Assembly: GCA_016181525.1 (NCBI GenBank)
Contig: JACOZD010000002.1
Location: forward strand, 1 to 43,037
Origin: Candidatus Tayloriibacteriota bacterium
GTDB lineage: Bacteria; Patescibacteriota; Minisyncoccia; Phycocordibacterales; JACOZD01
Length of the DNA: 43,037 bases
Direction: 5' to 3'
Position 1 is the first letter of the stretch; each line of letters opens with the position of its first letter. Made by a program: the position numbers and the translations under genes. Under the pieces are notes generated by a model. That model was not told where the DNA came from. It worked only from the letters and a program-made list of their open reading frames with translations, and searched no databases. Shown here one piece after another: positions 864 to 26,800 of this stretch.

Positions 864-1571
864 GTGTGGAAAGGTAAGTTAGCTATGAAGATACGTGCGC
901 TACTCGTGGGGGTTGCCCCGCTTCTCATCAATCGAATGACACCGGACACGCTCGAAGGTCTCCGGACCAAGGTCCATAAGCCAAAAGCCAAGGATCTCTC
1001 GCCGAAGCAGGAAGCGATTGGCAAGATCTATCGGAAGGACGGCGACAAAGGGCCAATGGGCATTCCGACCTTGAATCTGCTTGCCGCTATCAAAGCGGCA
1101 GGACGGTTCCATAAGTTCGATGGCAAGAAAGCGGTCTCGACCGCCGAGGGCACCTTGCTCTATTCGTTCCTCTCGATTGAGGATGAGTTCCTGCCGTTCG
1201 CGAATAATAATACCAAGGGAGAAATCCAGTGGGAAGCCGACATGCGTCGGGGAACCTGCATGGACATCGCCGTTTGCATTGTTCGGCCGAAGTTCAAAAA
1301 TTGGTCGCTCGACGTCACCTTCCAGGTTGACGGGAAGCAGGTCAAAGAAGGTCTCATCCGTCAACTCGTGGATACCGCTGGCTCCAAGGCCGGCCTCTGC
1401 GACTTCCGTCCGAACAAGGGCGGACCCTTCGGCCGTTTTGCGGTCGAGAAGTGGGAAGTGACGATGGAAGAATCGGACAAGCAGGGCGGGTATTCGGAAG
1501 AAGTCGAAGAGTCAGAGCCATCTGGTAATGGTCCGAATCGTCTCGAGAAACTTGAGACGGCGCGAGCGTAA
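864..1571 (+). CDS. Cas7/RAMP-like RNA-binding protein (likely start ATG 885)
   Basis: RAMP-like motif order: N-terminal strand LxGxxPLL, IPxxNLxAAIxxA, RPxFxxW strand, helix ending in AG, and C-terminal Gly-rich loop GLCDFRPNKGGPFGRFAV; acidic tail; directly followed by a structured array. Confidence 0.75.
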   Translation: MWKGKLAMKIRALLVGVAPLLINRMTPDTLEGLRTKVHKPKAKDLSPKQEAIGKIYRKDGDKGPMGIPTLNLLAAIKAAGRFHKFDGKKAVSTAEGTLLYSFLSIEDEFLPFANNNTKGEIQWEADMRRGTCMDIAVCIVRPKFKNWSLDVTFQVDGKQVKEGLIRQLVDTAGSKAGLCDFRPNKGGPFGRFAVEKWEVTMEESDKQGGYSEEVEESEPSGNGPNRLEKLETARA

Positions 1572-1572
1572 G

Positions 1573-2273
1573 TATTTACTTGCGGTGTCTGCGTGTCTTG
1601 TGCTAGTCTACGGTAAGATGCGGTTCTCTACTGATGCCGCGGAGTGAAAAATCTCCGCGGCAAGATTTCCGTTTTGTTCTTTGTCGCCAGGTCCTGTTCG
1701 CTCGAGTTAAGTTGGTTTCTGCTCGTTACGGCACGGTAACCTTCAGTACGGCCCCCGCCCCTTTTTTGAAAAAGGGGCGGGGGAGAATTTCAAAATCTGT
1801 TTTTTTATTCCGGTTGAGTAACCCGTTCTCCGCTGGACCGGAGCACGGTGAAGTTCATTCCACTAATGGGCGAGAGAGTTTAACTCTCTCGCCAGAATTT
1901 CCGGTTCGGTTTGTTCGGCCAAACTATCCTGCGGTTCTCTGGCCTGCACTAAACAAATCCGAACTACGCGGCTGGCATTCTCTTGAATGCCAGCCATTTG
2001 ATTTTTTGTCATAAAAGTTTTTTAAGTTATCTCTCGCGGTAAGGTGCGTTTTTGTTCTCTTTCCCAGAGTTTGGTTTTCCATCCTACAGTCTTCTTTTTC
2101 TACAGGGCACAAGGTGAGAAACTTTGTGCGATTTACTTTTTATGTTTTTAATGTAAGGTAAGACTGGATCAGGCGTACCAACGTGTGCTTGAGTGTGCTC
2201 CACTCCTCTGCGGCCGACTCAGGTTGGGTATTGTAGGGATTCTCTATGGGGCGAGGAATGAAAATTCCTCGCC
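1573..2273 (+). ncRNA. array 1: six putative guide-like RNA units with 5-nt periodicity, each ending in a hairpin
   Basis: Units at about 1573-1662, 1663-1783, 1784-1893, 1894-1995, 1996-2129, 2130-2273. Hairpins at 1635-1662, 1752-1783, 1869-1893, 1970-1995, 2107-2129, 2250-2273. A pyrimidine falls at every 5th base of the unit body (e.g. 1672,1677...1752 all Y). RNA status is inferred. Confidence 0.8.
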
Positions 2274-2283
2274 ATTTTTGTAT

Positions 2284-2312
2284 TTGACAGTTTGTGATAC
2301 TCATGCTAGTAT
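2284..2312 (+). promoter_or_regulatory. sigma70-type promoter for the small ORF-DinG-array 2 unit
   Basis: TTGACA (2284-2289), 17 bp spacer, TGc-TAGTAT (2307-2312). Confidence 0.65.
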
Positions 2313-2423: not shown

Positions 2424-2747
2424 ATGGGTAAGCATTATGTTGTAACTAGCTCGAGAATACGCCGAAAATCAAAAAAAGAGAAACGTCCTCCGAGCGTAAA
2501 CAAATACGCCCGTTTCGTACCTTCTCGGTCTTCTTTCTACCACTGGTTTGATAAAACTTTTCGCGACCTGCCAATTATTGGTGATCGCGGAGAAGTTCTC
2601 AAGGCGGGCTATCGTGTAACCTTTCATGGACGATTATATGCCCTTATGAAGGATACATCAATTCCGCAGACAGCACCCTCCATTCCGGGCACAGCAAACA
2701 AGTATCAAGGCGTCGGGCGATTCAAGTTGGTTGCCCGCCTTGATTGA
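2424..2747 (+). CDS. small basic hypothetical protein upstream of DinG
   Basis: 107 aa, AAAGGA RBS, K/R-rich N-terminus, abuts the helicase gene. Confidence 0.65.
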   Translation: MGKHYVVTSSRIRRKSKKEKRPPSVNKYARFVPSRSSFYHWFDKTFRDLPIIGDRGEVLKAGYRVTFHGRLYALMKDTSIPQTAPSIPGTANKYQGVGRFKLVARLD

Positions 2748-4585
2748 AAAAGAAAGGAAACATGCAACATCTGGAACATCTAAAATTATCTCTTTTAGAA
2801 GAGACGTTCCCCACAAGCGCTCTTCGTCGAGCGCCGTGGGCAAGTCAGCGGGAAATGTTTCGCATCATTTCCGAGAATGGCTCGGTCACGATCGAATCTC
2901 CGACAGGAAGCGGAAAAACCGCAGTCGAGTATACGGTCCTCAAAGCCGCAGACTTGAAACGGAAACAACCGCTTTTTCTCATCACTCCGAATAAAACATT
3001 GGTGGAGCAAATCCGCCAAGAGTTTCCGGATCTCAAAATCGCTCTTGGGCGAAACGAGCATCCATGTTTCTACTATCAGGACAAGTTGCCAGCTGATAAA
3101 CAGCCAATGGCAGACGAAATTCCATGCTCGCTTCTTAAAGACTGCCCTCATCGGGTGGACCAAGAGACAGGCAAAACTTTCGTAGAGGGAGCGATCCCAT
3201 GTCCGTATTTGAAGCAAAAGTTTGAGGCGAAGCAGGGCGGCATCGTTCTCTCCACCATAGCTTTCTATCTCTTCACTCAGCTTTTTAGCAAGGAGTGGGA
3301 GCAACCAGAAGTACTTGTCATTGACGAAGCACATAGGATGGCTGAAGTGGTGAGAAATGCACTCTCGTACGAAATCACTGATTGGCATTTACGAAAGTCG
3401 GTGGAACTTCTGCGAGAAATTGGTGCGGAGGAAGCAGAGTTGCTTCACGACTTCTACAAGAAGTTGGTTCATATAATCAAGTCAAAACCTGCGCATGAAC
3501 GAACCATGCTGAATGCCCGAGAAATTAGAGCGCTCATGGAAAAGCTTGAGGTCATAGATCAATCAGGACTCTTGCGCAAGCTTGAAAAGGCGGTGCGGGA
3601 GAAAGTGATTGATGTTGTCGAGAAACGGGAGACTCTGAAGAAGCTTGAAGTAGTGGTGAAGGATCTTCGCCGCTATCTACGCTCATTCGAGTATTCGCTA
3701 CCTGACGAAAATCGGCACGCGCTCAACTACACCTATGCCTTCTACAAAGACAAAGAGGAGAAAGGAGAGAAAGAGCATGTGCAGTATCGACTGGTGGTTA
3801 AATGCTACTATGTCGCACCCATCATCAAAAAAATTATGGGCAAGACAACGGTGGCTCTCTCGGCGACAATCGGAGATGATGAAGTGTTTGGCCATGAGAC
3901 GGGAATACGGAATCCATGTTTCAGTTTGGAATCCAATTTTCCGTCCGATAATGCTCGACTCTTTATGCCGACCGATACTCTCAATCTCGCGAAAAACGAG
4001 CGTGGTAATCGCGATTTACCAAAGAGTATCAGGATGGTGGCTCGGGCTTGCAAACGGTTGAGAGATAAAGGACACCGAAGTCTTTTCGTCACTATCTCTA
4101 ACCTTGAACGTGATAAGTTCATGATGATGGCAGAGGAGGAAGGTCTAAAGGCCATAAGTTACGGCAACGGCGTAACTGCAAAGGAAGCGGCTATCCGTTT
4201 CCGTGACGGCGAGGGTGATGTTCTCTGCGGCACGGCTTCAAACTATGCCGAAGGGGTGGATTTGCCAAAACAGATCGCACCAGTCATATTCTTTCTCCGA
4301 CCCGGGTATCCCAATCCTAAGGATCCGGGAACACAGTTTGAAGAAGAACGCTTCGGCGGCAGTCGGTGGGCGCTGTGGAATTGGCGGGTGATGATCCAGG
4401 CACTTCAAGTCCGCGGTCGGAACATTCGTTCTACCAAGGATCTGGGGGTGACGATATTCATATCACAGCAATTCCGGCGGTTCGTTCACGCATCACTTCC
4501 CAAATGGCTCGAGAAAGCATATGTCAATGACCGTACGTTTGACGAGTGTATTTCCCAAACGGAGGAGTTGTTAGGGGAAAAATAG
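2744..4585 (+). CDS. DinG/XPD-family SF2 helicase (likely start ATG 2762)
   Basis: Walker A ESPTGSGKT, VIDEAH, LSAT, AEGVDLP, QVRGRNIR; four Cys (HPC, IPC, DCPH, PCPY) consistent with an Fe-S site; AAAGGA RBS before ATG 2762. Confidence 0.9.
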   Translation: MKKKGNMQHLEHLKLSLLEETFPTSALRRAPWASQREMFRIISENGSVTIESPTGSGKTAVEYTVLKAADLKRKQPLFLITPNKTLVEQIRQEFPDLKIALGRNEHPCFYYQDKLPADKQPMADEIPCSLLKDCPHRVDQETGKTFVEGAIPCPYLKQKFEAKQGGIVLSTIAFYLFTQLFSKEWEQPEVLVIDEAHRMAEVVRNALSYEITDWHLRKSVELLREIGAEEAELLHDFYKKLVHIIKSKPAHERTMLNAREIRALMEKLEVIDQSGLLRKLEKAVREKVIDVVEKRETLKKLEVVVKDLRRYLRSFEYSLPDENRHALNYTYAFYKDKEEKGEKEHVQYRLVVKCYYVAPIIKKIMGKTTVALSATIGDDEVFGHETGIRNPCFSLESNFPSDNARLFMPTDTLNLAKNERGNRDLPKSIRMVARACKRLRDKGHRSLFVTISNLERDKFMMMAEEEGLKAISYGNGVTAKEAAIRFRDGEGDVLCGTASNYAEGVDLPKQIAPVIFFLRPGYPNPKDPGTQFEEERFGGSRWALWNWRVMIQALQVRGRNIRSTKDLGVTIFISQQFRRFVHASLPKWLEKAYVNDRTFDECISQTEELLGEK

Positions 4586-5261
4586 TTTCAGCTGCCCTTC
4601 GGCATTCTTGCGTGAAGTCGCGTAGTCCGAGCTCGCGTGCGCTTGTCTGCCGTTCAGTGCAGTTCGCTAAAGTACGGGCTGAGCATTTTCGAAAGAAAAT
4701 GCTCAGCTAAAATTTCCGGTGCAGTATAAGTCGCGCATCCTGCGCTGCTGTCCGGTGAAGTCCGCTAGCCATATGCTAGTGTGTCGTTCGGTGCCGAGTA
4801 ACATTTCGATGTCACTCGGCTAGAATTTCTGAAGTACACCAGTCTATGTTGCGGCGTTTTGTAGTTTGCTTGGCTAGACTGTCGTGCACTGCAGTAGCAG
4901 TACGGGCATAGCACCACGCTGTGGTGCTAGGCAAAAATTTCCCGTGTGGTAACGTAACCTTCCGTATGCTGTGTTAAGGTGCTACATGGTACACTCCGGA
5001 GCCAAGCTTTTGATTTAAAGGCTTGGCTATAATTTACTTCTGCTCCGTGTGCCTTGCTAGTCTCGGCCCCGGTCAGGTGGAGGTGTTGTCCAGTGCGATG
5101 CAGTTCGCCAGACTACGGCCTCGCCCTTTCGCGGAGAAAGGGCGAGGGAAATTTCTCTTGTTCTTTCAGTTCGGTTCGTTGCTCTGTGGTATAGTGGCCT
5201 GTGCTATGTTATACCAAGCTTGTCTACGGACGCGCGTATCAGAAATGGTACGCGCTTTTTT
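4586..5261 (+). ncRNA. array 2: six putative guide-like RNA units with 5-nt periodicity, each ending in a hairpin
   Basis: Units at 4586-4707, 4708-4820, 4821-4932, 4933-5028, 5029-5147, 5148-5255. Hairpins at 4678-4707 (GAAA loop), 4793-4820 (TTCG loop), 4906-4932, 5000-5028, 5119-5147, 5232-5255 followed by T6. Y at 4593,4598...4673 (17/17). RNA status is inferred. Confidence 0.8.
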
Positions 5262-5402
5262 CTTTGTCTGAAAAGGAGCCCCGCCACATCCTTTCTCCTC
5301 CCTTGTGGCGTGGCATATGTGCGCGGTGGGTAGGAAGGCAAGCACATACAAGAATGAGTCCTCGGACATTAAACAGGGCTTTTTTGTTTATTTTGAGTGA
5401 GC

Positions 5403-5431
5403 TTGACTTTTGTTGAAACTTACAATATATT
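5403..5431 (+). promoter_or_regulatory. sigma70-type promoter
   Basis: TTGACT, 17 bp spacer, TATATT. Confidence 0.5.
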
Positions 5432-5506
5432 TATTGAGACACTTGAGTAAGGTGCTCAAGGGTGCTCAAGCAAGAAATTGTACCTTGAAAGGAGAGATGA
5501 TCCTCG

Positions 5507-6292
5507 ATGAGATATTTTTCTGCTCGTCGGCGAATACAAGAGGAGCTTCAATACCTCCTTAAGTTTCTGACCGAGTACTTCGGAACAGAAATTCAGACAG
5601 TCGTTGTCTACGGAAGTTTCCTTAGGTGGTCATTCCGTAAATACAACGATGTGGATGTAGCAATCATTTTGCGTGATTCTCCAGAGTGGCGATGGAGCAG
5701 TTCAGAGTCCTTCTGGGATGCGCGAGATGATTCGCCATATCGTCAGAATTTCTTCCAAAAGCTCGAGCAGTTTCTCAAGGAGTTGGGTGCTTCTCGTCCT
5801 TACGACATCAAGGTCTTTACTACGCGTGACCTTGTATTGTTGGCAGAGTTCCAGGAACGCGTAGTCCACACCAGGGGGAACCTGGCACCGAGTATCAGAG
5901 CTGGGAAAGTCATTTTCCAGCGAAAGGAGAACGACATGGCGGAAATGAAGAAGAAACACAGGAGCTTCGTGGAGTTCCTGGACCGAGAGCTCCCGGCTCT
6001 CGGCATGACACACTGGTACAGAAGCAACGACGACTACGGTATCGGGATCGACTACCACGACATCGGCAAAGTCGTGACGGTGGAGCATCGCTTCCTGTTC
6101 ATCACTTGGACATCGAAGCGCACCATCACCATCGCGAGTGTGATTGCCGAGCCGGACACGCCGATTCATGGCGGAGCAGAGGATACTCTCCGGCTTCGCG
6201 TGAAGGTTCGTGAGGCAATACCGACGCTTCAGAGATTGGCCGAGAAGTTCGAAGATGCGACCTTCGGACTCAAAGCCGAGCTCATGTACTGA
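5507..6292 (+). CDS. minimal nucleotidyltransferase (Pol beta superfamily) domain plus unknown C-terminal region
   Basis: VVYGSF...NDVDVAIIL motif, later YDIKV and IRAGKVIF; in-frame internal RBS plus ATG at 5936. Confidence 0.75.
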   Translation: MRYFSARRRIQEELQYLLKFLTEYFGTEIQTVVVYGSFLRWSFRKYNDVDVAIILRDSPEWRWSSSESFWDARDDSPYRQNFFQKLEQFLKELGASRPYDIKVFTTRDLVLLAEFQERVVHTRGNLAPSIRAGKVIFQRKENDMAEMKKKHRSFVEFLDRELPALGMTHWYRSNDDYGIGIDYHDIGKVVTVEHRFLFITWTSKRTITIASVIAEPDTPIHGGAEDTLRLRVKVREAIPTLQRLAEKFEDATFGLKAELMY

Positions 6293-6312
6293 ACACGTCT
6301 CGCCTGTTAGTC

Positions 6313-6348
6313 AGAGGGAGTTTGCGAAAGCAGTTCCCTCTTTTTTTT
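6313..6348 (+). terminator. intrinsic terminator
   Basis: GAGGGAG-TTTGC GAAA GCAG-TTCCCTC stem followed by T8. Confidence 0.75.
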
Positions 6349-6638
6349 AGTTTCAAAGAGCAAGGAATTTGCCGCCAAGACTGAAATTCGTTAGAATTTC
6401 AATAATCCGAATCCGCCACATCCTTCGCTAAGGCTACGGAGTGCAAGGCAAAGAAAAACTTGAAATTATCTGATTCAAAATTGCGATTCAGATTTTCCAA
6501 TCAATTTTTCAGAGTTTTGGCCACCGCCGCCGAGGGCGGCGAAATGGGTTCGGACTATTTTCAGGAGACACAGCTGGTTTATAGCTCATTAATTAAGTTC
6601 TATTCAAGTATTTTGCAAAATACTAGAGTAGGATACAA

Positions 6639-6947
6639 TTGATGGCGTTAGGACTAAGCTCTGACCTTATTAAGATGGCAGTCAATTTTCGAAAATTGGA
6701 GAGAATTATCAAAGGTTTCGCCAATCACCGCCGCCTGGAAATACTTAATTTGCTTTTACATGAGCCAGAGCTCTCTGTTAGTGAAATATCTGAAAAGACC
6801 AGGACAGAGTATATGAACGCCTCTGACCATATTCGGAGGTTAGCTATTTCTGGTCTTCTTCTCAAACGTAATGATGGTAATATGGTGCGGCACAAATTAA
6901 CCCCTCTTGCCGAATCTATTCTAGAATTTTGCAAAAAACTAGAATAA
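6639..6947 (+). CDS. ArsR/SmtB-family transcriptional regulator (start may be ATG 6675)
   Basis: ANHRRLEILNLL...LSVSEISE...ASDHIRRL...GLL winged-helix pattern. Confidence 0.85.
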   Translation: MMALGLSSDLIKMAVNFRKLERIIKGFANHRRLEILNLLLHEPELSVSEISEKTRTEYMNASDHIRRLAISGLLLKRNDGNMVRHKLTPLAESILEFCKKLE

Positions 6948-12258: not shown

Positions 12259-13053
12259 GTGCGTTTGTTCTTTAAGTGTATGAAGATTCTGTCTAAATTG
12301 TTTTCTAATTCAGGAGCGCAGACTACTCTCTTTAGAGAGGACATTCTCAAGGAAATTAAGGAGGGCGGTCTCCAGATTGCTCCCTTCAATCCCGAGCTGG
12401 TCAAGGAGGCCTCAATCGACCTTAGCCTCGGTGAATATTACTTCGAGCAGAACGAGGACTATGAAATGCGGGCCCAGATTGGCGGCCCGCGCTGCCACAA
12501 TCCCTTTGACCAATTCTCCAGAAATTTATGGAAGTGCGACTGTTCGCGGGCCAAACCGGCTCAAATATGCGCCGACGAGCATGATGTCGTGCTGAAGGGT
12601 TTCGACCCGAAGGATTTGGCGGTGGTTATCAAACCCAAGCAGAGCATCCTGTCGGCCAGTCTGGAGTTTGTAAAATTGGGAGAGAGAATCTCTCTCCATC
12701 TTGACGGCCGGTCATCGCCCGCGCGGCTGCTTTTGAGGGCGGCCGGGCCGATGGACTTCATCGACCCCGGCTACGTCGACCCCGTAACCTTTCTTATCAC
12801 CAACCCTTTTGACACCTTGCCGGTTGTCCTTAAGGTCGGTACGCGCCTGGTTCAGTTTGAAGTCAAAAAGGGCGGCCCTGGTTGCAGCGGCTGCTACGGC
12901 GGTCGAGGCAAGTATTCTTCACCCGTAAGTCTCGAGGAGGCGCAGGCGGCCTGGCAGCCGGAAATGATGCACTCCAAGATGCATCTCGACCCGGAGGCCT
13001 TCCCCAGTATGACCGTTTACCCAGATAAACATATAACCAGCCGCGCGGTCTAA
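12259..13053 (+). CDS. dcd: dCTP deaminase-like protein (divergent)
   Basis: ASIDLSLG, GRSSPAR, FIDPGY, LKVGTRLVQ. Confidence 0.75.
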   Translation: MRLFFKCMKILSKLFSNSGAQTTLFREDILKEIKEGGLQIAPFNPELVKEASIDLSLGEYYFEQNEDYEMRAQIGGPRCHNPFDQFSRNLWKCDCSRAKPAQICADEHDVVLKGFDPKDLAVVIKPKQSILSASLEFVKLGERISLHLDGRSSPARLLLRAAGPMDFIDPGYVDPVTFLITNPFDTLPVVLKVGTRLVQFEVKKGGPGCSGCYGGRGKYSSPVSLEEAQAAWQPEMMHSKMHLDPEAFPSMTVYPDKHITSRAV

Positions 13054-13100
13054 AACCGCGCGGTTTTTCATTGGATTTTTAATTATTAGGATGATAATGT

Positions 13101-22763: not shown

Positions 22764-22863
22764 TGTTCAACACTCGGTGTTGCACATCTCTCGGTGTTGC
22801 ACATCTCCCGACTGCCTACCGCTATGTGCAACACCGAGTGTTGCACACGGGCACGGTGTTGCA
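22764..22863. repeat. cluster of TGTGCAACAC-CGA-GTGTTGCACA palindromes
   Basis: Copies at 22764-22786 (inverted) and 22825-22847 plus partial copies; also at 23792-23814 and 30163-30183. Confidence 0.85.
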
Positions 22864-26710: not shown

Positions 26711-26800
26711 GGAGGGTTCGCATAGTGGTCTAGTGCGCGCGCTTGGAAAGCGCGTAAGGGATAATTCCCTTCGAGAGTTCGAATCTCTCACCCTCCGCCA
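26711..26800 (+). tRNA. tRNA-Ser(GGA)
   Basis: GGAGGGT/ACCCTCC acceptor, anticodon GGA, long variable arm, GTTCGAATC, encoded CCA. Confidence 0.95.

Follow-up and report, generated by a model that had tools for sequence, protein, structure and literature searches.

A probable chromosomal VIPR locus in a Patescibacteria genome, with two arrays of candidate guide RNAs and an XPD/DinG-like helicase

The systems named VIPR (Viral Interference Programmable Repeat), of which seven types have been published, are described in bioRxiv preprints of 2026 (10.64898/2026.04.26.720920, 10.64898/2026.04.26.720927 and 10.64898/2026.10.15.759431). As far as the available text of these sources goes, Vipr is a minimal RAMP protein and the VIPR RNAs (vrRNAs) are about 100 nt long, with 9–16 pentamers in which GGY alternates with a hypervariable NN, followed by a structured tail (10.64898/2026.04.26.720920). 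Each repeat is occupied by a single Vipr protomer, which turns the GGY outwards and leaves the NN exposed, and the NN bases pair with double-stranded DNA with every third target base skipped (the 2026 VIPR preprints). The published systems work through transcriptional silencing; variant scaffolds NNNGG, YNNNG and NNNNG are reported, and types III–V, which include host-encoded, defence-island systems, are said to carry predicted helicase or nuclease accessory genes (10.64898/2026.04.26.720920). The role of the helicase accessory genes is stated as unknown (10.64898/2026.04.26.720927), and the non-canonical motifs WGT/NN and TGH/NN have also been reported (10.64898/2026.10.21.760802). Neither the DinG/XPD family nor Patescibacteria occurs in the available text of the VIPR paper 10.64898/2026.04.26.720920. 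Here we describe a locus in a 43,037-nt stretch of the genome of a Candidatus Tayloriibacteriota bacterium (contig JACOZD010000002.1, positions 1 to 43,037; below, the window), which is very likely a VIPR system composed of two arrays of guide RNAs, Vipr and an XPD/DinG-like helicase.

The gene upstream of the first array (885–1571) is homologous to the solved Vipr of SUSP1, and the plan of the arrays, a triplet and NN repeated with a period of five, is the RNA architecture published for VIPR (available text of 10.64898/2026.04.26.720920). The period-five code is that of the noncontiguous VIPR guides, which has been in print since April 2026, and finding it here is a rediscovery rather than a new principle. 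What is distinctive about this unannotated chromosomal VIPR locus is its relaxed scaffold, its hairpin tails, its twelve guides and a helicase partner that is found phylum-wide.

Two arrays with a period of five

Array 1 (1573–2273) fills the gap between a 228-aa gene (885–1571, + strand) and a small open reading frame (ORF; 2424–2747, + strand), while array 2, of the same build, occupies the gap at 4586–5506, 3' of a 607-aa helicase gene. A first-pass annotation of the window had described array 1 as a strict NN+N(G/C)Y pentamer code, with a period that could not come from codons and that would be invisible to repeat finders, and had proposed autocorrelation against shuffles and a logo of the phased pentamers as checks. 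Both checks bear the positional code out. The lag-5 autocorrelation of array 1 is 0.160 for T (z 4.2) and 0.144 for Y (z 3.8), values that are reached by 0/2000 and 1/2000 dinucleotide-preserving shuffles, respectively. The signal of array 2 (4586–5255) is stronger (T 0.218, Y 0.159; 0/2000 shuffles reach either), with a z of 5.6 as against the 4.2 of array 1. At lag 3 the signal in 1573–2273 is about zero, and ORFs running across the arrays have matches in 37 other loci only at the shared hairpins, which argues, as the annotation had done, against an origin in codon structure. Tandem Repeats Finder, at a score of 30, likewise reported nothing inside 1573–2273. Among 1362 segments of 700 nt covering the 492-kb assembly the two arrays take ranks 1, 3 and 4 by lag-5 signal, and both come out top in a 300-nt scan of the window. 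The period-five pattern is confirmed as real and as confined to the two arrays; the other lag-5 peaks of the genome (C3 at ~12.7 kb, C13 at ~10.3 kb, C27 at ~36.8 kb and C10 at ~2.1 kb), when inspected by eye, were T-rich intergenic DNA and not arrays.

Each array is built of six head-to-tail units of 91–144 nt, in line with the RNA size of about 90–145 nt that the annotation had proposed, and each unit is a tract of 10–18 pentamers followed by a GC-rich hairpin. All 12 units exceed the threshold of at least 4 tandem 5-nt repeats used by VIPR callers. The hairpin, present at the end of 12/12 units, provides the structured 3' tail of a VIPR RNA; in array 1 its stem is 9–15 bp long and 89–100% complementary, with a sequence that varies by unit. 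It is the dominant element in both the minimum free energy and the centroid folds of the six units that were folded. With MAFFT/RNAalifold the 12 tails aligned poorly, yielding just 5 consensus pairs, and the hairpins are better documented singly. In both arrays an ACGG-like motif usually lies ahead of the hairpin. Behind it comes either an ARAATTTC(C) junction, in register with the next tract such that TTT is the first triplet and CC the first NN, or, in the last units, a terminator-type T run; T runs follow 4/12 hairpins. No Rfam family matches either array. The features of the locus are as follows.

885..1571, + strand: vipr, RAMP-family protein of 228 aa; start at 885 taken from the homologue alignment.
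1572..1662, + strand: array 1 unit 1, vrRNA candidate; 10 repeats with one slip; strict Y run of 9 (1589–1629, p 0.052); hairpin 1635–1662; the weakest unit.
1663..1783, + strand: array 1 unit 2, vrRNA candidate; 17 repeats; strict Y run of 17 (1667–1747, p 0.0008); hairpin 1752–1783.
1784..1893, + strand: array 1 unit 3, vrRNA candidate; 13 repeats; strict Y run of 13 (1804–1864, p 0.0028); hairpin 1869–1893.
1894..1995, + strand: array 1 unit 4, vrRNA candidate; ~15 repeats with one slip; strict Y run of 11 (1900–1950, p 0.016); hairpin 1970–1995, then a T run.
1996..2129, + strand: array 1 unit 5, vrRNA candidate; 15 repeats; strict Y run of 15 (2030–2100, p 0.019); hairpin 2107–2129, then a T-rich tail.
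2130..2273, + strand: array 1 unit 6, vrRNA candidate; 18 repeats; strict Y run of 18 (2149–2234, 0/5000 shuffles); hairpin 2250–2273, then a T run; likely the end of the first transcription unit.
2284..2312, + strand: promoter-like site TTGACA-17 nt-TAGTAT with TG, a consensus match only; precedes orf107, the helicase gene and array 2.
2424..2747, + strand: orf107, small basic protein, between array 1 and the helicase gene.
2762..4585, + strand: XPD/DinG-like superfamily 2 (SF2) helicase of 607 aa with an iron–sulfur (Fe-S) cluster motif, accessory (vap-type) gene; assigned from profiles and motifs.
4586..4707, + strand: array 2 unit 1, vrRNA candidate; 18 repeats; hairpin 4678–4707.
4708..4820, + strand: array 2 unit 2, vrRNA candidate; 16 repeats with two slips; hairpin 4793–4820.
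4821..4932, + strand: array 2 unit 3, vrRNA candidate; 14 repeats; hairpin 4906–4932; homologous guide in the related locus L015.
4933..5028, + strand: array 2 unit 4, vrRNA candidate; 12 repeats; hairpin 5000–5028.
5029..5147, + strand: array 2 unit 5, vrRNA candidate; 17 repeats with one slip; hairpin 5119–5147; homologous guide in L015.
5148..5255, + strand: array 2 unit 6, vrRNA candidate; 15 repeats; hairpin 5232–5255, then TTTTTT, giving the second transcription unit a terminator-like end.

The strict runs listed are unbroken series of pyrimidines at a stride of five, and their p values come from 5000 mononucleotide shuffles within each unit. Over the 12 units the runs range from 8 to 18, the shortest being that of array 2 unit 2 (p 0.15), and in array 1 they equal or exceed the counts given in the first-pass annotation. 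Equally long runs in shuffled DNA, which the annotation had named as fatal to its claim, are rare for units 2–6 of array 1 (p ≤ 0.019) but not for unit 1, and isolated runs are common. The window holds 48 strict Y runs of at least 11 on its two strands, 38 of them outside the arrays, and a hand tally of the other 27 contigs gave about 140 of at least 12. A lone run of 11–13 is what chance would provide and is not special. The signal of the arrays is significant because their runs cluster, sit on a single strand and carry a T and G/C bias, with 10 strict runs of at least 11 lying on the + strand within ~1.4 kb.

With the register set by Y alone, a logo was made from the 145 pentamers of these 10 runs. 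The pyrimidine is T in 83% and is preceded by G in 43%, C in 38% and A in 4% of the pentamers. The first scaffold base carries 0.07 bits (G in 38%), and the NN positions N4 and N5, at 0.03 and 0.06 bits, are near random. A control set of 467 pentamers, drawn from chance runs in the rest of the window, has G/C before Y and T at Y in 47% each. The pentamer is laid out as a triplet x-(G/C)-Y with two unconstrained bases behind it, and the commonest of 179 triplets, GGT (26), AGT (22), GCT (18), TCT (15), CGT (13), TGT (10) and ACT (10), agree with those that had been picked out by hand. While the Y phase and the G/C bias stand, calling the code strict was an overstatement, as one-base register slips occur in some units and only 81% of the pentamers have G or C ahead of Y. 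Set beside the published VIPR RNAs, the scaffold is a related consensus, with a fixed Y and G or C before it, and the NN bases are hypervariable, both in the logo and in the divergence of the arrays between loci with similar genes. It would seem that in this Patescibacteria lineage the pyrimidine pocket is the main mark of the register, with the second scaffold base G or C and the first free. No Vipr residue was found to track G-only versus G/C scaffolds among the 12 loci compared. The composition of the NN bases best fits antisense codon positions 1–2, at +8.8 log units versus a shuffled mean of +6.6, a fit that is mostly due to base composition. The interpretation of the first-pass annotation was essentially right, with the expression of the arrays as RNA a prediction from their layout; what lay beyond its view was that the code had already been described and that, by analogy with the known systems, the free NN bases would be the information-bearing guide.

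In groundwater contigs from four DNA runs of one study the arrays are almost unchanged. Variants of array 2 unit 1 in contigs of the same study, some at sites of low depth, are a C inserted behind 4591, T>C at 4626 and G>A at 4659; in the register used here the second lies at a first scaffold base and the third in an NN.

Vipr, the helicase and orf107

The product of the gene at 885–1571 matches the 'SUSP1 Vipr protein' of the Protein Data Bank (PDB; 36pp_D) with a phmmer E-value of 4.6e-4 as a single sequence, and a profile of 21 of its homologues matches it with an E-value of 1e-9 over profile positions 118–192, such that the locus encodes a homologue of the protein that defines VIPR systems. 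The residues R138, D177, W178 and R179, named as scaffold contacts of SUSP1 Vipr in the available text of bioRxiv 10.64898/2026.04.26.720927, have R, D, F and R as their aligned counterparts in the window protein, and R141, F181, R182 and P183 are invariant among the 21 homologues. The homologue alignment also contains a conserved glycine-rich motif, resembling a G-loop, and the Arg aligned to SUSP1 R138 would be that of the thumb; both RAMP features are predicted from sequence. The protein matches phrog_4652, for which the function is unknown, and no family in Pfam, NCBIfam or PADLOC; only scattered chance matches were obtained when the 21 homologues were compared with Pfam at E ≤ 5. The family is a large one: 6459 cluster representatives out of 1.84 billion match the Vipr profile at E ≤ 1e-3. 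In isolated phages the distant homologues are annotated as hypothetical protein or left unannotated, and the window protein is present in NCBI nr without a name, its Taylorbacteria relatives being called 'hypothetical' or 'uncharacterized'. TRAP-type ring proteins also read triplets spaced by 2–3 bases, and a TRAP-like mode of triplet binding was dropped once Vipr had been identified.

Between a promoter-like stretch at ~707–735, seen by eye, and the start of vipr lies a perfect tandem 14-mer (789–817), each of its two copies with TTGACA, which resembles an operator or a -35 box in duplicate.

The accessory gene of the locus is that at 2762–4585. Its product matches Helicase_C_2, DEAD, ResIII and DEAD_2 of Pfam and has the features of an SF2 Fe-S helicase, namely Walker A (GSGKT, 49–53), DEAH (188–191), four cysteines between them (Cys 102, 122, 128 and 147) and Helicase_C_2; the motifs and cysteines do not vary among 11 homologues. 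In PADLOC the best match is to the profile typeIV_DinG PDLC01439 (CAS-IV-A; associated), over its full length and with an E-value of 3.7e-43, and two further typeIV_DinG profiles give E-values of ~0.01–0.04. NCBIfam cas_csf4 gives 27 bits where the cut-off is 400, and the closest solved relatives are archaeal XPD proteins (E 8.6e-10). By these profiles and motifs, the protein is classed as an XPD/DinG-like Fe-S helicase that would be type IV-A-like in logic without being a member of type IV-A. Prediction of a complex between Vipr and the helicase gave a score of 0.00 in two runs, which is informative neither way.

The small basic protein encoded by orf107 is possibly a second accessory protein. 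No Pfam, PHROGs, NCBIfam or PADLOC family matches it and no usable lead came from Atlas; a homologue, with 55% identity and at the same position, was found in L015 only.

Related loci, known systems and chromosomal setting

A vipr homologue is present in 10/401 sampled Patescibacteria genomes, the window's own included, and in 0/7 listed genomes of the same order. Five loci in species-representative genomes come from Nomurabacteria, Taylorbacteria, Saccharibacteria (two) and one unclassified metagenome-assembled genome. The helicase adjoins vipr in 11/13 Patescibacteria loci, made up of 4/5 in the species-representative genomes and 7/8 in a second set from the phylum; the exceptions are L014, where the contig ends 522 nt past vipr, and L034. 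By comparison it adjoins vipr in 0/13 loci from IMG/VR. On a tree of 25 Vipr sequences, calculated without L002, L010 and L038 and with a weak branch (49/86) between the two groups, the helicase label changes 3 times versus a shuffled mean of 8.6, and 0/500 shuffles were as low. That 11 of the 13 loci keep the two genes linked, in genomic surroundings that differ, speaks for a functional pair. The order vipr-then-helicase recurs in the four loci of the first five that have both genes; in the second set of eight, where the helicase lies beside vipr in seven, the gene order varies.

Many phased runs are seen in the gaps beside the genes in 9/9 loci examined. In L015, L017 and L018 the top lag-5 windows lie between vipr and the helicase gene and 3' of the latter, while L016 is without a lag-5 peak there but holds five strict runs between the two genes. 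At the second scaffold base L015, L018 and L031 have a mixture of G and C, as does the window, and L016, L017 and L035 mostly G. The strongest lag-5 windows touch the vipr homologue in 9/13 IMG/VR loci, and among the seven of these that were inspected clear GGY/NN tracts are visible in L006, L010 and L012. As a positive control, the same scan of an Ounavirinae coliphage record flagged the intergenic regions beside its vipr homologue, in which canonical GGY/NN tracts can be seen. One genome, at L032 (G239:C1:3500-20000), has two vipr paralogues and a helicase gene, with 38 strict phased runs of at least 10 in ~6 kb of intergenic DNA and so a much larger guide repertoire.

L015, the locus from Taylorbacteria, allows a closer comparison. 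Its Vipr and helicase are 83% and 93% identical in protein sequence to those of the window, and its genes have 79–82% nucleotide identity, whereas the arrays share only three patches of 45–55 nt. The units in L015 have an anatomy like those in the window and several classes of tail hairpin recur. Of 13 window guides, two are homologous to guides of L015 array 2, with NN identities of 22/28 and 18/24 and excesses of 8 and 6 versus a maximum of 4 in the null (20 shuffles); over both pairs NN identity is 40/52 versus a triplet identity of 50/78, a difference that is not significant. Since the flanks of L015 differ from those of the window, the cassette appears to move as a module. In L015 it sits inside a cell-wall/division cluster (MraW, PBP transpeptidase, Mur ligase) and beside a KilA-N gene (L015 1–5900), and a PemK/MazF-like ORF (L015 7862–8173) lies inside the first array zone. 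In the window, nucleotide similarity to L015 starts at 726, just past a GC-rich element (600–692). In 2/4 groundwater runs this element has ~6 times the contig depth of its neighbours (~13 times in X3, <2 times in X4), with many loose contig ends at 629, 655, 658, 660 and 692, and it may be a multi-copy repeat that marks the boundary of the cassette.

Among described systems, type II VIPR, from phage SUSP1 and a Pseudomonas fulva prophage, shares with the window a Vipr homologue with the G-loop scaffold residues kept (D, aromatic, R), units of ~100 nt with 9–16 or more pentamers of a pyrimidine-ended triplet and two variable bases, structured 3' tails, and arrays placed in intergenic DNA to either side of the protein genes. 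The window differs in having the scaffold x-(G/C)-Y rather than the GGY of SUSP1, hairpins of several sequence classes rather than one invariant pseudoknotted tail, twelve guides rather than four, an Fe-S helicase in place of the DNA-binding vap1, and a place on a Patescibacteria chromosome rather than in a phage or prophage. With scaffold, tail and accessory gene all different, the locus is not a member of type II. Types III–V, as far as the available text describes them, resemble it in their enzymatic accessory gene, cellular location and variant scaffold (YNNNG being listed). The non-canonical VIPR-like clusters likewise have period-5 arrays beside Vipr-like folds and a scaffold degenerate at one position, but in the available text theirs have 10 repeats and a fixed trinucleotide, whereas the window mixes G and C within an array and reaches 18 repeats (10.64898/2026.10.21.760802).

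A phage genome that carries DinG, a Cas7-like gene and unusual arrays was the first reading considered. It was dropped, since the window has genes for GroEL, ribonucleotide reductase, dCTP deaminase and an elongation factor and the 492-kb assembly is 81.65% complete as a cell. Downstream of array 2 lie a nucleotidyltransferase gene (5507–6292), with weak matches to MntA antitoxin and PDC-S09, and a gene for a winged-helix regulator (6639–6947), and this neighbourhood (5507–6947) may be a small defence or toxin–antitoxin region. An intergenic element of ~35 nt ending in AGAATT is found at ~6360–6400 of the window and at ~2230–2270 of G000:C10, with similar promoter-like boxes near the copies (window 5403, C10 ~1702). 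A perfect tandem 17-mer (22773–22807), which has related direct and inverted copies at G000:C3 ~13000–13060 in the same genome, may be a shared regulatory site. The window further carries tRNA-Ser(GGA) at 26711–26800 and a run of tRNA-Gly(CCC), tRNA-Arg(CCT) and tRNA-Phe(GAA) at the contig end (42032–42879).

Proposed mechanism, alternatives and implications

Taking the unit anatomy, the homologies of Vipr and the helicase and the order of genes and arrays together with the work on SUSP1 and P. fulva, it would seem likely that the arrays are transcribed with their flanking genes, array 1 by read-through from the vipr promoter and array 2 from the promoter-like site at 2284. Transcripts would be cut at or near the junctions to give RNAs of ~90–145 nt. 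One Vipr protomer would then occupy each pentamer, holding the flipped-out scaffold triplet and presenting the NN, and the resulting filament would read double-stranded DNA by an NN-skip-one rule, by which each guide would specify 20–36 bases over 30–54 bp. Going beyond the published work, we suggest that the helicase may be loaded at the R-loop or triplex formed by the filament, where, as a 5'–3' Fe-S helicase, it could unwind or clear the target and so extend or enforce interference. The chromosomal system most likely defends its ultra-small host against phages or other mobile DNA.

Several points weigh against identification of the locus as a VIPR system. The canonical GGY scaffold is not what the arrays contain, with G at only 38% of first and 43% of second positions, and the sequences of their plain hairpin tails differ, whereas SUSP1 has an invariant, pseudoknotted tail. 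Array 1 unit 1 (p 0.052) and array 2 unit 2 (p 0.15) are individually weak. The match to the solved Vipr is confined to the C-terminal third, and the RAMP fold of the protein is putative. The transcription, the processing sites and the length of the RNAs are deduced from the layout of the arrays, and the action of the helicase and its contact with Vipr are put forward as a proposal. Nor did the search for targets provide support: in 655 kb the 12 window guides, read by the NN-skip-one rule, scored no higher than shuffled ones, and in a set of 97, drawn from relatives as well as the window, there were 7 real versus 8 shuffled matches at ≥0.80 in 785 kb, a scope that left public viral and metagenome collections unscanned. 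The sole perfect matches were the guides themselves, at skip 3.

One alternative is a working VIPR that controls genes of the cell itself or a resident element, for example as a silencing or dosage circuit, instead of acting against invaders, with a helicase of the repair type that is simply encoded close by. This would suit a chromosomal locus amid cellular genes, the position of the L015 cassette within a cell-wall/division gene cluster and the transcriptional silencing reported in the available text on published systems (10.64898/2026.04.26.720920), but it is improbable, given that no window guide beats shuffled guides on the window's own 492-kb assembly (81.65% complete) and that the helicase stays with vipr across differing contexts. 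An array of small regulatory RNAs that are independent of one another, or of intrinsic terminators in a stack, unrelated to the protein encoded next to it and with the period of five a by-product of some other RNA–protein or DNA-shape constraint, would account for the terminator-like hairpin that ends every unit and for the T runs after four of them. It would leave unexplained why the neighbouring gene is homologous to a protein known to read such pentamers and why Vipr homologues elsewhere are flanked by period-5 tracts, and with no Rfam family matched it seems very unlikely. Least credible of all, to about the same degree as the CRISPR-Cas remnant discussed below, and contradicted by the data, is an artefact of chance or composition, or a hidden coding frame such as the ORF at 1634..2014. 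Single Y runs of 11–13 are indeed common by chance and this 126-aa ORF spans three units, but the shuffles hardly ever reach the lag-5 values of the arrays, which top the genome-wide ranking; the chance runs lack this bias towards T and G/C, lag 3 shows no signal, and the ORF crosses three hairpins and has homology only at the hairpin patches.

Type IV-A CRISPR-Cas, with its Csf proteins and the DinG helicase Csf4, is like the proposed system in placing a RAMP-family backbone on a guide RNA and adding a DinG/XPD-family helicase, and its interference acts by silencing and not by cutting. A degenerate relative of it, with a Cas7-like protein, DinG and a decayed array, would draw on the typeIV_DinG match of the helicase (E 3.7e-43) and on the description of Vipr as a RAMP relative in the available text of 10.64898/2026.04.26.720920. 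However, the window has no direct repeats of CRISPR size and no tandem array of CRISPR period, and its register is of 5 nt, not 6, with gapped pairing. It is without Csf1, Csf3, Cas6 and adaptation genes, no Cas or Csf profile matches Vipr or orf107, and no Cas1 was found in the genome (81.65% complete). The helicase itself falls far below the Csf4 equivalog cut-off and has archaeal XPD as its closest solved relatives. Such a remnant is extremely unlikely and is contradicted by the lack of repeats and of further Csf proteins.

A VIPR system thus remains much the best account of the locus. A bolder proposal, which we regard as rather doubtful, is that Patescibacteria have a VIPR lineage of their own, with a register set mainly by a single Y beside a tolerant G/C, far looser than GGY, and a dedicated XPD/DinG-like Fe-S helicase that turns binding of the filament into active interference, a solution like that of type IV-A and possibly its forerunner. 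If this were true, it would give ultra-small bacteria an RNA-guided defence, in this case in an 82%-complete genome without a detected Cas1. As it stands, the locus would be a chromosomal twelve-guide system in a groundwater Patescibacteria genome of ~0.5 Mb. Its scaffold, reduced to Y and G/C, bears on the minimum of RNA contacts that Vipr needs to hold its register, and hence on the freedom with which guides may be designed, and the clade supplies at least 12 natural examples in which the role of the helicase accessory genes may be studied.

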